From a virus (lineage: Duplodnaviria; Heunggongvirae; Uroviricota; Caudoviricetes), in the IMG/VR virus record IMGVR_UViG_2645727640_000005, positions 1-6,081 of that record: a DNA stretch of 6,081 bases; one strand, 5' to 3'. Positions 1 through 6,081 of this stretch are shown here, piece by piece (the stretch's first letter is position 1; the number at the start of each line of letters is the position of its first letter). Below the pieces are notes generated by a model. It searched no databases, was not told the DNA's origin, and saw only the letters and a program-made list of their open reading frames with translations. Both the position numbers and the translations under genes were made by a program.

Positions 1-49
1 GCATGACAAAGTCATCGGGCATTATCTGAACATAAAACACTATCAATAA

Positions 50-136
50 GTTGGAGTCATTACCCGCCTTATCGACATACTTAATCAGCCAGGAGTCCCA
101 AAAAATGGATCAAACACTTATGGCTATCCAGACTAA
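50..136 (+). pseudogene. cIII: cIII 3' remnant (C-terminal ~23 codons of lambda-like CIII, no start codon in window)
   Basis: Frame-2 translation of 65..136 gives [23 protein letters not shown], matching the C-terminus of lambda CIII as I recall it. Upstream, the same frame has an in-frame TAA at 47..49 and no ATG, and no frame of 1..64 encodes the CIII N-terminus or amphipathic helix. The kil ATG sits at the cIII 3' end, as in lambda. Confidence 0.4.
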
Positions 137-248
137 ATTCACTATCGCCACTTTTATTGGCGATGAAAAGATGTTTCGTGAAGCCGTCGACGCTTATAAA
201 AAATGGATATTAATGCTGAAACTGAGATCAAGCAAAAGCATTCACTAA
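105..248 (+). CDS. kil: Kil, host cell-division (FtsZ) inhibitor, 47 aa
   Basis: ATG at 105 inside the 51..248 track ORF gives a 47-aa product ([12 protein letters not shown]...[10 protein letters not shown]), the length and sequence I recall for lambda Kil. It sits upstream of and overlaps gam, as in lambda. The track ORF's 5' extension begins at TTG and is probably not used. Confidence 0.8.
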
Positions 249-619
249 CCCCCTTTCCTGTTTTCCTAATCAGCCCGGCATTTCGCGGGCGATATTTTCA
301 CAGCTATTTCAGGAGTTCAGCCATGAACGCTTATTACATTCAGGATCGTCTTGAGGCTCAGAGCTGGGCGCGTCACTACCAGCAGATCGCCCGTGAAGAG
401 AAAGAGGCAGAACTGGCAGACGATATGGAAAAAGGCCTGCCCCAGCACCTGTTTGAATCGCTATGCATCGATCATTTGCAACGCCACGGGGCCAGCAAAA
501 AAGCCATTACCCGTGCGTTTGATGACGATGTTGAGTTTCAGGAGCGCATGGCAGAACACATCCGGTACATGGTTGAAACCATTGCTCACCATCAGGTTGA
601 TATTGATTCAGAGGTATAA
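203..619 (+). CDS. gam: Gam, RecBCD inhibitor (full-length GamL form, 138 aa)
   Basis: 138-aa ORF that matches lambda Gam along its whole length as recalled ([20 protein letters not shown]...[10 protein letters not shown]). An internal ATG at 323 preceded by AGGAG (311..315) corresponds to the short GamS start. Synteny is kil-gam-bet-exo. Confidence 0.95.
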
Positions 620-624
620 AACGG

Positions 625-1410
625 ATGAGTACAGCACTCGCAACGCTGGCAGGGAAGCTGGCTGAACGTGTCGGCATGGATTCTGTCGACCCACAGGAAC
701 TGATCACCACTCTTCGCCAGACGGCATTTAAAGGCGATGCCAGCGATGCGCAGTTCATCGCATTGTTGATCGTCGCCAACCAGTACGGCCTTAATCCGTG
801 GACGAAAGAAATTTACGCCTTCCCTGACAAGCAGAACGGCATCGTTCCGGTGGTGGGCGTTGATGGCTGGTCCCGCATCATCAACGAAAACCAGCAGTTT
901 GACGGCATGGACTTTGAACAGGACAACGAATCCTGCACATGCCGGATTTACCGCAAAGACCGCAATCATCCGATCTGCGTTACCGAGTGGATGGATGAAT
1001 GCCGCCGCGAACCATTCAAAACCCGCGAAGGCAGAGAAATCACCGGACCGTGGCAGTCGCATCCCAAACGGATGTTACGGCATAAAGCCATGATTCAGTG
1101 TGCCCGTCTGGCCTTCGGATTTGCTGGTATCTATGACAAGGATGAAGCCGAGCGCATTGTCGAAAATACTGCATACACTGCAGAACGTCAGCCGGAACGC
1201 GACATCACTCCGGTTAACGATGAAACCATGCAGGAGATTAACACTCTGCTGATCGCCCTGGATAAAACATGGGATGACGACTTATTGCCGCTCTGTTCCC
1301 AGATATTTCGCCGCGACATTCGCGCATCGTCAGAACTGACACAGGCCGAAGCAGTGAAAGCTCTTGGATTCCTGAAACAGAAAGCCACTGAGCAGAAGGT
1401 GGCAGCATGA
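625..1410 (+). CDS. bet: Bet (Red-beta) single-strand annealing protein, 261 aa
   Basis: 261-aa ORF matching lambda Bet as recalled ([35 protein letters not shown]...). GAGG at 611..614 lies upstream of the ATG. Its stop overlaps the exo start in an ATGA junction (1407..1410). Confidence 0.95.
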
Positions 1411-2087
1411 CACCGGACATTATCCTGCAGCGTACCGGGATCGACGTGAGAGCTGTCGAACAGGGGGATGATGCATGGCACAAATTACGGCTCGGCGTCA
1501 TCACCGCTTCAGAAGTTCACAACGTGATAGCAAAGCCCCGCTCAGGAAAAAAGTGGCCTGACATGAAAATGTCCTACTTCCACACCCTGCTGGCTGAGGT
1601 TTGCACCGGTGTGGCTCCGGAAGTTAATGCTAAGGCGCTGGCCTGGGGAAAACAGTACGAGAACGACGCCAGAACCCTGTTTGAATTCACTTCCGGCGTG
1701 AATGTTACTGAATCCCCGATCATCTATCGCGACGAAAGTATGCGCACCGCCTGCTCTCCCGATGGTTTATGCAGTGACGGCAACGGCCTTGAACTGAAAT
1801 GCCCGTTTACCTCCCGGGATTTCATGAAGTTCCGGCTCGGTGGTTTCGAGGCCATAAAATCAGCTTACATGGCCCAGGTGCAGTACAGCATGTGGGTGAC
1901 GCGAAAAGATGCCTGGTACTTTGCCAACTATGACCCGCGTATGAAGCGTGAAGGCCTGCATTATGTCGTGATTGAGCGGAATGAAAAGTACATGGCGAAT
2001 TTTGACGAGATGGTGCCGGAGTTCATCGAAAAAATGGACGTGGCACTGGCTGAAATTGGTTTTGTATTTGGGGAGCAATGGCGATGA
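1407..2087 (+). CDS. exo: Exo (Red-alpha) 5'-3' dsDNA exonuclease, 226 aa
   Basis: 226-aa ORF matching lambda exonuclease as recalled ([40 protein letters not shown]...GEQWR). ATGA overlap with bet, as in lambda. Confidence 0.95.
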
Positions 2088-2245
2088 AGCATCCTCACGA
2101 TAATATCCGGGTAGGCGCGATCACTTTCATCTACTCCGTTACAAAGCGAGGCTGGGTATTTCCCGGCCTTTCTGTTATCAGAAATCCACTGAAAGCACAG
2201 CGGCTGGCTGAGGCGATAAATAATAAACGGGGGCTGTATGACTGA
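2084..2245 (+). CDS. small ORF (53 aa) coupled to exo; positional equivalent of lambda orf60a, with a different 3' end
   Basis: ATG 2084..2086 overlaps the exo stop (ATGA). It translates to [53 protein letters not shown]. Lambda has orf60a in this position with the same 4-nt overlap. The ORF is shorter than 60 codons and its end overlaps the methyltransferase start, consistent with a mosaic junction near 2180..2240. It is below the size cutoff of the ORF track. Confidence 0.45.
2150..2176 (+). terminator. putative intrinsic terminator (tL3-like) downstream of exo
   Basis: Hairpin GGCTGGG (2150..2156), loop TATTT, CCCGGCC (2162..2168), seven pairs including one G-T wobble, followed by the T-rich run TTTCTGTT. 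Lambda is known to have tL3 shortly downstream of exo; identity with tL3 is from position only. Confidence 0.35.
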
Positions 2246-2795
2246 TTTCACCGGAAGCAATACTCCTGCCGAACATCGCGACAGCTGGCGCACACCACCA
2301 GAGATTTTTGCTGCGCTTAATGCAGAGTTCGTTTTTCAACTTGATGCTGCCGCCAGCGAAAAAAACCGACTATGTCGGCTTTTTATCTCACAGGAGCAGA
2401 ACACATTAACCACTTCATGGCCTGAAGCAATGGGATATGCCTCTGGTTATGTCTGGTTGAATCCACCATACAGCAATATTTCCCCTTTTGTGAAAAAGGC
2501 AGCCACTGAAAACAAATTCAGTAGTGTGGGATGTGTAATGTTATTGCCTGCTGACACATCTGTCGGATGGTTTCATGAAGCGATACAAACCGCCAGTGAG
2601 GTCAGATTCATCACGGCAGGACGACTGGCATTTATTAACCCACTCACGGAGAAACCCGTCAGTGGAAATAATAAAGGCTCGATGCTCATTATCTGGCACC
2701 CATACCCCCGTACACACTGCCACTTTACGACCGTTGATCGTGGAGAGTTGATGGCGTTCGGCTCAAGGATTCTTGCCCGTCGGGAGGCTGCATGA
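2238..2795 (+). CDS. orphan phage-type DNA N6-adenine methyltransferase (phage Dam family), 185 aa
   Basis: 185-aa ORF with an N-terminal WRTPPEIF motif, an FQLDAAAS motif and the catalytic NPPY tetrad (WLNPPYSN), the hallmark of the small phage Dam methyltransferase family. GGGGG lies 4 nt upstream of the ATG. No restriction endonuclease partner is visible in the window. Confidence 0.85.
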   Translation: MTDFTGSNTPAEHRDSWRTPPEIFAALNAEFVFQLDAAASEKNRLCRLFISQEQNTLTTSWPEAMGYASGYVWLNPPYSNISPFVKKAATENKFSSVGCVMLLPADTSVGWFHEAIQTASEVRFITAGRLAFINPLTEKPVSGNNKGSMLIIWHPYPRTHCHFTTVDRGELMAFGSRILARREAA

Positions 2796-2875
2796 CAACC
2801 ACGGAATGCATTTTTCTGGCAGCGGGCTTCATATTCTGTGTGCTTATGCTTGCCGATATGGGACTTGTTCAATGA
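2792..2875 (+). CDS. possible 27-aa hydrophobic peptide, start and stop both in ATGA overlaps
   Basis: ATG 2792..2794 overlaps the methyltransferase stop (TGA 2793..2795). The ORF encodes MTTTECIFLAAGFIFCVLMLADMGLVQ and its TGA (2873..2875) overlaps the ATG (2872..2874) of the next gene. The hydrophobic core could form one transmembrane helix. It is below the track cutoff and could be chance. Confidence 0.3.
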   Translation: MTTTECIFLAAGFIFCVLMLADMGLVQ

Positions 2876-3087
2876 CACCTCAGCAGGAAAACGCCCTTCG
2901 CAGCATTGCCCGTCAGGCTAATTCTGAAATCAAAAAAGCCAGACAGCAGTTTCCGGATAAAAACGTCGATGACATTTGCCGTAGCGTACTGAAGAAGCAC
3001 CGCGAAACGGTAACGCTGATGGGATTCACACCGACTCACTTAAGTCTGGCAATCGGTATGTTAAACGGCGTCTTTAAGGAACGGTGA
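2872..3087 (+). CDS. hypothetical protein, 71 aa
   Basis: Inside the 2773..3087 track ORF. ATG 2872 gives MTPQQENALRSIARQANSEIKKARQQ...GVFKER. An alternative ATG at 2806 would give 93 aa, and the track start at 2773 is TTG. No motif recognised. The start choice is uncertain. Confidence 0.5.
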   Translation: MTPQQENALRSIARQANSEIKKARQQFPDKNVDDICRSVLKKHRETVTLMGFTPTHLSLAIGMLNGVFKER

Positions 3088-3107
3088 ACATGAAAAGCAA
3101 AATCATC

Positions 3108-3133
3108 AGGGAGCTACAGGCTCCTTTTTTATT
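3108..3133 (+). terminator. putative intrinsic terminator or attenuator between genes
   Basis: GGAGC (3110..3114), loop TACAG, GCTCC (3120..3124), immediately followed by TTTTTT (3125..3130). The stem is short, 5 bp extendable to 7 with a G-T pair. It lies within a possible 29-aa ORF (3090..3179). Confidence 0.4.
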
Positions 3134-3185
3134 ATTCGCATTCACCCTCAAGCGTATTAACCAACAATTCAGGGATTAATGAAAG

Positions 3186-3407
3186 ATGGCAGATATCATT
3201 GATTCAGCATCAGAAATTGAAGAATTACAGCGCAATACAGCAATAAAAATGCGTCGCCTGAACTACCAGACTGTATCCGCAACTCATTGTTGTGAGTGTG
3301 GCGATCCGATAGATGAACGAAGACGCCTGGCAGTTCAGGGTTGTCGGACTTGTGCAAGTTGCCAGGAGGATCTGGAGCTTATCAGTAAACAGAGAGGTTC
3401 GAAGTGA
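3186..3407 (+). CDS. TraR/DksA-family C4 zinc-finger protein, 73 aa
   Basis: Cys at residues 35, 38, 56 and 59 give C-x2-C-x17-C-x2-C with a GDPIDERRR segment between the pairs, the pattern of the phage and plasmid TraR/DksA zinc-finger family. Its stop overlaps the GTG start of the next gene. Confidence 0.7.
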   Translation: MADIIDSASEIEELQRNTAIKMRRLNYQTVSATHCCECGDPIDERRRLAVQGCRTCASCQEDLELISKQRGSK

Positions 3408-4090
3408 GCGAAATTAATTATCAGGCACTGCGTGAAAAGGCAGAGAAAGCAACTAAAGGAAGCTACATCGTAGGGCATACATCTGTTAACCAGCACGGCA
3501 ATTTAACAGGAGTTTTTGTTTGCCAAAAATGGAAAGGAGAACCCGGTGGTGTGATTGCGGAATGTCATGTTAACTGCCTGGTTGAAACAGATGTTCAGGC
3601 TTATGCAAACGCTGAATTTATTGCTGCTTTTAATCCAAATGTTGCGCTGGCACTACTGGATGAACGGGAAAGAAACCAGCAATACATCAAACGCCGCGAC
3701 CAGGAGAACGAGGAGATTGCGCTTACGGTTGGGAAGCTGCGCGTTGAGCTGGAAGCCGCAGAGAAGCGCAACGCAAAATTACAAAGCGAGAATGCATACA
3801 TCCGCAACCGGTACAAAGAACTGGACCTGTTAATCGGGAAAAACATTCTGGTCATGCAGGCTGCCATTATCGAATGGCAATCGACTGGCGACGCTAAAAG
3901 CGGACTGGCATGGATTTATAACACACTGTTTGGCCCAGGCGAATTGCCGGACGAATCTGAGAAAGATGCTCAGGCCTACTTTAATCGCAAATATGCACCG
4001 ATTGACGAAAAGCTTATGGCGCTTCACAAGTGGTTTTGGGAACAAAGTGAAGCCAAGCGCGCCGCTGGCATTCGCATCAAAGGAGAGTGA
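3404..4090 (+). CDS. Ead/Ea22-like coiled-coil protein, 228 aa
   Basis: GTG start at 3404 with AGAGAGG 6 nt upstream. The N-terminus (INYQALREKAEKATKGS) and the NAEFIAAFNPNVALALLDE segment resemble the conserved motifs of prophage Ead/Ea22-like proteins as I recall them. The central region (LTVGKLRVELEAAEKRNAKLQSENAYIRNRYKELD) is a heptad-like coiled coil. Confidence 0.6.
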   Translation: MSEINYQALREKAEKATKGSYIVGHTSVNQHGNLTGVFVCQKWKGEPGGVIAECHVNCLVETDVQAYANAEFIAAFNPNVALALLDERERNQQYIKRRDQENEEIALTVGKLRVELEAAEKRNAKLQSENAYIRNRYKELDLLIGKNILVMQAAIIEWQSTGDAKSGLAWIYNTLFGPGELPDESEKDAQAYFNRKYAPIDEKLMALHKWFWEQSEAKRAAGIRIKGE

Positions 4091-4091
4091 G

Positions 4092-4607
4092 ATGGCGTTA
4101 ACACACCGAGAACTCTGTCAGATTGCGTACAAGTTCCTTAAGCGCAACGGGTTCAAGGTTTGCTTTCATGACCGCTTTATAGCCGTAACCAGTACCGGAG
4201 AACAGCCAGATGCTATGGGATTCAGAAATTCAGCATCATGCCTGATAGAGGCGAAATGTTCTCGTGCTGACTTGTTGGCAGATAGAAAAAAGCGTTTTCG
4301 TAAAAATCCGTCTCTTGGAATGGGAGACTGGCGATTCTTTATTAGTGAGCCGGGAACTATTTCAATTGAGGATTTACCACCTGGCTGGGGATTACTTCAC
4401 GTTGTTAACGGAAGAGTACGGAAAGTACATGGATGGCCCAAGGGGAATTGCTGTTGGGGTAACCCTGAGGATAAACCTTTTATTGGGAATAAGCAGGTTG
4501 AATGCGATTACATGTTGTCTGCCTTAAGGCGCATGGAGTTGAGAGGGCACCTTAATGAAATATATGACGGTGTAATTGTTAATAAGAAAGAAGGAAACGC
4601 GGCATGA
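4092..4607 (+). CDS. hypothetical protein with PD-(D/E)xK nuclease-like motif, 171 aa
   Basis: ATG 4092 with GGAG 6 nt upstream. The track ORF 3930..4607 extends 5' in another frame of the upstream gene and is not used. The N-terminal 60 aa have a helix, two strands, PD at residue 40 and hhEAK at 53-55 (FIAVTSTGEQPD...SCLIEAK), the canonical PD-(D/E)xK arrangement. The C-terminal 100 aa are Trp/Cys-rich (GNCCWGNPED, VECDY) and not recognised. A nuclease function is inferred from the motif only. Confidence 0.55.
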   Translation: MALTHRELCQIAYKFLKRNGFKVCFHDRFIAVTSTGEQPDAMGFRNSASCLIEAKCSRADLLADRKKRFRKNPSLGMGDWRFFISEPGTISIEDLPPGWGLLHVVNGRVRKVHGWPKGNCCWGNPEDKPFIGNKQVECDYMLSALRRMELRGHLNEIYDGVIVNKKEGNAA

Positions 4608-5491
4608 TCACTATTACCAAAGGGCGACTGCTGACAATCAAACAGTGGCGCGAAACATACGGACCTGGTAGCAACGTTGTACTGCCAGCAGAAGAAGCGG
4701 AAGAACTGGCACGAATTGCTCTGGCAGCGCTGGAAGCCGAGCCGATAGGTTTCCGTTGCAGGCGCAATGATAACCTTGGTGATTGGAGTTACGTATATCA
4801 TCGAGAGCCAGATGATTTTGAGCGCAAACATTTAGTGATAGAGGGCATTTACGCCGCCCCTCCAGCACCAGTAGTACCGGAAGAAAAACCAATGCCTAAT
4901 CCTCTTAGCATGTACGCGGTTGATGCTGTTGCCGCTATTGCAGAGGTGAGAGGCTGGAACGCCTGCCGTGCCGCTATGCTTCAGTCCGGAAACTTTCGGG
5001 AAAACAAGAATTCGTCAACCAATAATTTTCGGGAAATCGCGGAAACGTCAACCAACTATCCGGTAATTCCTAGTGAGGTGTTGTCCGCAATCCTGAAGGT
5101 TGCCAAGATTCGTGCCGATGTCGATGATTTTGACGGTGACAGGCGAGGTATCGGTGATTGTCTGGATGAGGCTGAGCAAGAGCTTATCGTTACCATTAAC
5201 AAATATGCCAGTCAGTTGGCAGCAGAACCTATAGCGCCTAATGACGTTCGAGAGCAGACAGCCATTCCACAAGTTCCGGTGACTCCGGATGGTTGGATAA
5301 GCTGTAGTGAGCGAATGCCGAATACCAAAACAGCCGTTCTTGTTGCCGTGGAGTTTGACAGGAAAGGTGACTGGCGAATGAAATGGGCTACTTACATCCC
5401 GGGGCATCCTGACGCTAATGATGGGTGGATAATTCCTGGTGCGTCGTGGAAACCGTCACACTGGATGCCGCTACCAGAGCCTCCACTTTGA
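4604..5491 (+). CDS. DUF551-type prophage protein, 295 aa, with internal tandem repeat
   Basis: ATG 4604 overlaps the upstream stop (ATGA) and AAGGAA lies 7 nt upstream. The C-terminal ~70 aa (WISCSERMPNTKTAVLVAVEF...GWIIPGASWKPSHWMPLPEPP) match the DUF551 signature of prophage proteins as I recall it. The N-terminal half is acidic and helical. Confidence 0.75.
   Translation: MITITKGRLLTIKQWRETYGPGSNVVLPAEEAEELARIALAALEAEPIGFRCRRNDNLGDWSYVYHREPDDFERKHLVIEGIYAAPPAPVVPEEKPMPNPLSMYAVDAVAAIAEVRGWNACRAAMLQSGNFRENKNSSTNNFREIAETSTNYPVIPSEVLSAILKVAKIRADVDDFDGDRRGIGDCLDEAEQELIVTINKYASQLAAEPIAPNDVREQTAIPQVPVTPDGWISCSERMPNTKTAVLVAVEFDRKGDWRMKWATYIPGHPDANDGWIIPGASWKPSHWMPLPEPPL
4991..5056 (+). repeat. 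imperfect 33-bp tandem direct repeat (2 copies) in frame within the DUF551 gene
   Basis: Copy 1 (4991..5023) AACTTTCGGGAAAACAAGAATTCGTCAACCAAT and copy 2 (5024..5056) AATTTTCGGGAAATCGCGGAAACGTCAACCAAC match at 25 of 33 positions. They encode NFRENKNSSTN and NFREIAETSTN. Confidence 0.8.
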
Positions 5492-5587
5492 AAGCGAAGC
5501 TTATACATATCTTTTACATCAGCAATCTATTGTTAATCTCCAATCAATGTTACGTTGTCATCTCACTCATGCTTTGGAGTTAGTGAT

Positions 5588-5767
5588 ATGTCTTGTCCAA
5601 AATGCGGTTCTGGAAATATTGCAAAAGAAAAAACAATGCGTGGATGGTCTGGTGATTATGTGTGCTGCGATTGCGGATACAACGACTCTAAAGACGCATT
5701 TGGAGAGCGTGGTAAAAACGAGTTTGTCAAAATTAATAAAGAACGCGAAGGCAACGAAAAAAGCTAA
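5588..5767 (+). CDS. small zinc-ribbon protein, 59 aa
   Basis: ATG 5588 with GGAG (5575..5578) upstream. The track start at 5555 is TTG. Cys at residues 3, 6, 26 and 29 give C-x2-C-x19-C-x2-C, and the C-terminus is Lys/Glu-rich. Codon usage is AT-rich. It is followed by a terminator and sits immediately upstream of xis, in the position of lambda's small unnamed ORF and ea8.5. Confidence 0.55.
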   Translation: MSCPKCGSGNIAKEKTMRGWSGDYVCCDCGYNDSKDAFGERGKNEFVKINKEREGNEKS

Positions 5768-5830
5768 TTTATTATTCATATATGAAAACAATGTAACCAA
5801 TATTCGAATTGAAGAACTGAAAGAACACCA

Positions 5831-5852
5831 AGCCGCCTGATGGCGGTTTTTT
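5831..5852 (+). terminator. putative intrinsic terminator upstream of xis
   Basis: CCGCC (5833..5837), loop TGAT, GGCGG (5842..5846), extendable by A-T and G-T pairs, followed by TTTTTT (5847..5852). Confidence 0.5.
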
Positions 5853-5879
5853 CTTGCGTGTAATTGCGGAGACTTTGCG

Positions 5880-6081
5880 ATGTACTTGACACTTCAGGAG
5901 TGGAACGCTCGCCAGCGACGCCCAAGAAGCCTTGAAACAGTTCGTCGATGGGTGCGCGAATGCAGGATATTCCCTCCTCCGGTTAAGGATGGCAGAGAGT
6001 ATCTGTTCCACGAATCAGCGGTAAAGGTTGACTTAAATCGACCAGTAACAGGTAGCCTTTTGAAGAGGATCAGAAATGGGA
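5880..6081 (+). CDS. xis: Xis excisionase, 5' partial (first 67 codons; runs off window end)
   Basis: ATG 5880 with GGAG 8 nt upstream. Translation MYLTLQEWNARQRRPRSLETVRRWVRECRIFPPPVKDGREYLFHESAVKVDLNRPVTGSLLKRIRNG matches lambda Xis (72 aa) as recalled. It is absent from the ORF track because no stop lies within the window. Confidence 0.9.
   Translation, partial: MYLTLQEWNARQRRPRSLETVRRWVRECRIFPPPVKDGREYLFHESAVKVDLNRPVTGSLLKRIRNG

Follow-up and report, generated by a model that had tools for sequence, protein, structure and literature searches.

We examined a stretch of DNA of 6081 bp (referred to here as the window). An exact-match search with the protein encoded by its DUF551 gene identified an identical locus, namely the complete contig JHRS01000234.1 in GCA_001265595.1, a draft E. 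coli assembly. Its genes are those of a lambdoid pL operon, beginning with the 3' part of cIII and ending within xis, with the cIII sequence located directly upstream of the kil-gam-bet-exo block and overlapping the start of kil (Table 1). A GC-rich hairpin (GCCCGGCATTTCGCGGGC, positions 273–290), followed by a T-rich tail, is located between kil and gam and is the only terminator-like site within positions 1..400 of the window (one found, versus 0.2 expected).

Table 1. Features of the 6081-bp window, with positions, strand and the basis of each assignment.
Feature	Position	Strand	Description and basis
IS1 (IS1A-like), right-hand terminal 64 nt	1..64	+	Transposase co-oriented with the pL operon; element cut off by the contig start
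IS1 transposase (insB / InsAB'), last 15 codons and TAA (47..49)	2..49	+	Translation compared to the annotated PCN061 C-terminus
IS1 IRR, 23 bp, GGTAATGACTCCAACTTATTGAT	42..64	-	Inverted-repeat comparison with IRL
Target-site duplication, right-hand copy, CGCCTTATC	65..73	+	cIII codons R32-L33-I34; left copy precedes IRL on L014
cIII, 3' remnant	65..136	+	Codons 32–54 and TAA (134..136)
kil ribosome-binding site AGGAG and ATG	91..95; 105	+	Inside the cIII remnant, 27–41 nt downstream of the IS1 junction
kil	105..248	+	47 aa, intact; PF06301 Lambda_Kil; overlaps cIII 3' end, as in annotated relatives
gam	323..619	+	Intact; PF06064 Gam; same annotation in relatives
bet	625..1410	+	Intact; PF03837 RecT; same annotation in relatives
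exo	1407..2087	+	Intact; PF09588 YqaJ; same annotation in relatives
DUF1317, Dam-like methylase, TraR/DksA-like, Ea22-like and DUF551 genes		+	Rest of the lambdoid pL operon
xis, start only	5880..6081	+	PF07825 Exc; contig ends 17 nt before the xis stop

The cIII sequence in the window carries neither a start codon nor a ribosome-binding site. Its product is identical to residues 32–54 of the 54-residue CIII protein of close relatives (WP_001198861.1), and its DNA does not differ from the corresponding part of the intact cIII genes in relatives L002 and L004; a complete reading frame of ~54 codons, with its own start and ribosome-binding site, is absent from the window. Translation of positions 2..136 in frame 2 encounters an in-frame TAA at 47..49, six codons before R32, and contains no ATG. 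Homology to phages and prophages begins exactly at position 65 in every match, both among phage records and among 5426 complete E. coli genomes, and positions 1..64 share nothing with the 5' half of cIII. An earlier note on this DNA had described the last ~23 codons of cIII, a TAA six codons upstream of them without any ATG, a preceding segment of non-lambda sequence, and a broken cIII frame. Each of these observations stands, and the 54-residue CIII protein cannot be produced from this locus.

The first 64 nucleotides of the window are the right-hand end of an IS1 element. IS1, an IS1-family insertion sequence of the Enterobacteriaceae, is 768 bp in length and contains insA and insB, with a programmed −1 frameshift. 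All 64 bases are identical to the last 64 nucleotides of an IS1 copy in E. coli PCN061 that is exactly 768 bp long, is bounded by GGTGATGCTGCC and GGAGTCATTACC, and bears the annotation ‘IS1-like element IS1A family transposase’. Megablast located this 64-nt repeat, annotated as an IS1-like element, in 5280 of the 5426 E. coli genomes, the median genome having 10 matching places. The peptide encoded by positions 2..49 matches the C-terminal residues of the annotated IS1A-family transposase exactly; the coding sequence of that transposase in PCN061 ends at a position (L001:3049) equivalent to window position 49. That transposase naturally terminates at the TAA at 47..49, which is situated within the 23-bp terminal inverted repeat and in frame with cIII by chance; the TAA is not a sequencing error, a possibility raised in the earlier note.

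The window contains the C-terminal tail of the transposase alone; a longer fragment, found as a 27-residue gene at the edge of a sister contig (L006, described below), matches the DDE transposase family of IS1 (insA/insB; PF03400, DDE_Tnp_IS1). The inverted repeat in the window (IRR) matches its counterpart (IRL, GGTGATGCTGCCAACTTACTGAT) on a partner contig (L014:797..819) at 18 of 23 positions. The inverted repeats characteristic of IS1 are ~23 bp long, with GGTGATGCTGCC... at one end and GGTAATGACTCC... at the other, and both ends seen here are identical to those of the PCN061 IS1. Over the 64 nt seen in the window, the 99 nt in L006 and the 65 nt in L014, the sequence is identical to the 768-bp IS1A-like copy; with its imperfect 23-bp inverted repeats, its transposase C-terminus and stop codon, and a 9-bp target duplication (below), the element has no visible difference from IS1. 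The edge of the window is the end of a contig at which the assembly broke inside this multi-copy sequence, and the apparent truncation of cIII arises because the draft contig breaks within the repeated element. The match of 64/64 bases to the IS1 end, together with a match of the other 6017 bases to a sister prophage (L004; JHSO01000063.1) with three mismatches, indicates that the junction between positions 64 and 65 is not a product of chance.

IS1 usually duplicates 9 bp of its target. For a simple insertion, the other junction was predicted to consist of ...AAACGCCTTATC joined directly to GGTGATGCTGCC..., and to encode a 42-residue protein comprising CIII residues 1–34 followed by GDAANLLI. 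Eight such CIII-IS1 read-through products were specified in advance, seven of them corresponding to duplication lengths of 6 to 12 bp and one to a variant of the IRL sequence, and were looked up by exact sequence among ~15 billion proteins. Only the product of a 9-bp duplication and a standard IRL (MQYAIAGWPVAGCPSESLLERITRKLRDGWKRLIGDAANLLI) was found, as WP_052929337.1; the other seven were absent from that collection. WP_052929337.1 is encoded both by a Logan contig from SRR6060202 (L013) and by an 861-bp contig from the same assembly as the window (L014; JHRS01000506.1). The latter retains the ribosome-binding site and ATG of cIII and ends with ...GGATGGAAACGCCTTATC joined to GGTGATGCTGCC..., so that it contains cIII codons 1–34, with the 9-bp sequence CGCCTTATC at their end, and then 65 nt identical to the left end of IS1. 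The same 9 bp therefore flank both ends of the element as a direct duplication.

The junction in the window is located 64 nt from the end of a short-read contig, where mis-joins can arise, and might in principle be an artefact, either as a chimeric contig end in which IS1 k-mers were fused to cIII or as a base error that generated the TAA at 47..49. Four contigs from at least three datasets, however, bear one or other junction at the same base, an exact 9-bp duplication is common to both junctions, and the TAA belongs to the IS1 inverted repeat, where it serves as the conserved stop of the transposase. We consider the probability of an assembly or sequencing artefact to be practically negligible.

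When the IS1 sequence and one copy of CGCCTTATC are removed in silico and the two contigs are joined (L014 positions 176..796 to window positions 74..6081), the resulting 6629 bp are colinear with L004, with four mismatches, and encode an intact 54-residue CIII that is identical to WP_001198861.1. Viewed alone, the window would be compatible with a mosaic recombination event, or with a deletion (in one variant bounded by IS1), that removed the 5' half of cIII and all sequence upstream of it, and at this locus upstream prophage DNA can indeed be lost up to an IS1: in PCN061 an IS1 is located 124 bp upstream of cIII, with cusS beyond it. A junction formed in that manner would lack a target duplication, and the 5' half of the gene would be gone. 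Instead, codons 1–34 of cIII adjoin the other IS1 end in the same assembly, the 9-bp duplication is perfect, and the joined contigs recreate the sister prophage with its intact cIII. These observations argue for simple IS1 transposition; the mosaic or deletion reading is already refuted unless the two contigs derive from different molecules or cells, and we regard it as extremely improbable.

Two proposals in the earlier note are revised by this result. The second mosaic or deletion junction that it placed near positions 50–65 is an IS1 junction at 64/65 with a 9-bp duplication, and cIII has not been reduced to a 3' remnant, since codons 1–34 are found beyond IS1 on JHRS01000506.1.

The element is seen in the source genome as terminal segments of 64 and 65 nt, and a single IS1 of 768 bp is an assumption. 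Only the outermost 64–65 nt are assembled there (99 nt in L006). An IS1-flanked composite transposon would present identical ends and likewise duplicate 9 bp, and a larger insert might also consist of two IS1 copies with other DNA between them. Many E. coli genomes also contain numerous recombinable copies of IS1 (the median of 10 matching places per genome given above), and a later IS1–IS1 inversion or translocation could have parted the two junctions. There is, however, no positive sign of extra DNA, both ends are oriented as expected for one element, and the insertion of one IS1 alone is much the most frequent kind of event. We consider an insert larger than one IS1, or a subsequent rearrangement of this kind, to be very unlikely.

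We believe that the locus is almost certainly the product of a recent, simple insertion of IS1 into the cIII gene of a lambdoid E. coli prophage, with CGCCTTATC as the duplicated target. A copy of IS1 would have transposed into cIII of a prophage (one that adjoins torS in sister assemblies), in the orientation that aligns its transposase with the pL operon, and its usual staggered cut would have duplicated the 9 bp of codons 32–34. The short-read assembly would then have broken at both ends of this multi-copy element, leaving the window as the downstream contig (64 nt of IS1, cIII codons 32–54, kil, gam, bet and exo through to xis) and the upstream junction on the separate 861-bp contig. The feature is an ordinary and fully explained one of an already-known kind: the element conforms to IS1, and the rebuilt gene is a standard lambdoid CIII. 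Like lambda cIII (which encodes a 54-residue FtsH inhibitor; PF02061), the rebuilt gene, whose product is WP_001198861.1, occupies the same position and has the same overlap with the start of kil; it differs from lambda cIII in being split after codon 34 by IS1, with codons 32–54 alone in the window. A literature search gave no usable earlier report of IS1 in cIII.

Two sister contigs throw light on the insertion. L004 (assembly GCA_001266005.1) carries the same prophage with an intact 54-residue cIII. A contig of an independent assembly (L006; JHTM01000060.1) has the same right-hand IS1–cIII junction, with 99 nt of IS1, and differs from the window at 2 of 6081 positions. Both of these prophages run on through xis and int to host torS; the window contig, which stops within xis, probably broke there at another repeat common to a co-resident prophage. 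At two positions the window has a base found in neither L004 nor L006 (A for T at 651, in bet, and G for T at 2648, in the Dam-like methylase gene); L006, despite the shared IS1 junction, therefore does not represent an identical strain.

The IS1–cIII junction was found only in the draft and Logan contigs named here (the window contig, L006, L014 and L013). When positions 1..400 of the window were compared by megablast with the 5426 complete E. coli genomes, no match ran unbroken through 64/65; the four best were in two pieces, and the two of these that were inspected (PCN061 and J31) have IS1 elsewhere, upstream of an intact cIII. An exact search with a 28-nt junction sequence gave no match in GTDB representative genomes or in IMG/VR. 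No IS1 junction was found in the phage record collection, in which the best record covers positions 65..5856 only and the closest records are Stx1-converting phages.

The left junction is identical in L013 (positions 1149–1371) and L014 (positions 600–861), and the upstream modules differ, with a DUF2528 gene in L013 versus a GP17-like gene in L014 (311..622). Because the ~170 nt directly upstream of the junction are invariant in all sequences compared, the junction in L013 could equally represent the same insertion, moved to a second background by recombination, or a separate insertion event at those 9 bp. The first 175 nt of L014 are unlike the sister L004 and match L003 and L013 at 97.5%. 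This mismatch places a genuine mosaic boundary ~620 bp upstream of IS1 in the source prophage, and the 861-bp contig probably breaks at that boundary, on sequence common to another prophage.

IS1A-like elements are positioned near cIII in other strains, in the same orientation as the one described here. Those in E. coli PCN061 (L001, 2297–3064) and E. coli J31 (L015, about 1800–2560) are located 0.1–0.6 kb upstream of cIII genes that, in contrast to the present one, are intact. The PCN061 element directly adjoins host cusS, at a point from which the rest of the prophage has been deleted; the locus is an IS1-bounded prophage remnant limited to cIII, kil, gam, bet and exo. In PCN061 a truncated integrase gene also adjoins a tRNA-Arg gene and fimZ. 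In J31 the element lies upstream of a DUF2528 gene within a prophage.

A very common ‘CIII’ allele of 40–41 residues (MQYAIAGWPVAGCPSESLLERITRKLRDGWKR followed by VEVLLCAMK; P0003, P0006 and P0012) is found in at least 996 contigs, complete genomes included. It diverges from the standard protein just after R32, the same codon at which IS1 is inserted in the present prophage, which suggests a natural module boundary inside cIII near its overlap with kil.

The consequences of the insertion for CIII can be considered from the structure of the interrupted gene. The upstream piece encodes CIII residues 1–34 and eight IS1-derived residues (42 in all), such that D35, I36 and L37 are replaced by GDA, with glycine first, and all residues beyond are lost. 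PMC1838920, citing Kornitzer et al. (1991), reports that CIII activity requires residues 14–37, that these residues suffice for it, and that a cIII-minus phenotype results from single alanine substitutions within them, R32A included. Judged against that account, the 42-residue product lacks an uninterrupted 14–37 amphipathic region, retaining 21 of its 24 residues (R32 among them). Since the cut falls inside the region needed for FtsH inhibition, a loss of CIII function is likely. Some residual activity may nonetheless persist, given that 21 of the 24 residues are kept and that the natural 41-residue allele also diverges after R32. Because CIII acts only during the establishment of lysogeny, maintenance of the resident prophage should be unaffected, and its progeny phage would plausibly lysogenise with reduced efficiency.

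CIII has also been reported to be deleterious to the host (PMC1838920). Given the identical left junction in two prophage backgrounds (L014 and L013), it is conceivable that codons 32–34 are a hot spot for IS1 or, in view of that report, that cIII knockouts are recurrently selected in lysogens; alternatively, the 42-residue product might itself be active or dominant negative. We view these possibilities as unlikely. The evidence would be explained just as well by one ancestral insertion and later, ordinary recombination between prophages in the region upstream.

IS1 is polar, and classical polar IS insertions are known in the early operons of lambda, such as r14 (IS1 in the cII region). The insertion into cIII resembles those of the r14 type in being located inside an N-antiterminated early operon and in striking a gene for the establishment of lysogeny. 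It differs in affecting cIII rather than cII and in belonging to a naturally occurring prophage, from the draft genome of a wild E. coli. Some polarity on kil, gam, bet, exo, xis and int would be expected, but N antitermination should largely override it: the pL operon is N-antiterminated and an N-peptide gene is located upstream in the sister prophage, so that downstream expression after induction is probably largely retained. A literature search returned no usable report on IS1 polarity in combination with N antitermination. A hybrid outward promoter at the IS1 end, driving kil, was considered and dropped, as a consensus scan identified no outward sigma-70-like promoter within positions 1..400 of the window.

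For draft assemblies, the lesson of this locus is that a gene truncated at a contig end and accompanied by foreign sequence is most simply an IS junction, and that this possibility should be tested first. The RefSeq label of WP_052929337.1 (‘protease FtsH-inhibitory lysogeny factor CIII’) is correspondingly misleading for what is a CIII-IS1 read-through product. Insertion of IS elements into prophage genes is a routine route of prophage decay, and cIII is dispensable for maintenance of a prophage. If the phage is of the Stx type, a cIII-null allele of this kind could lower its lysogenisation of new hosts.
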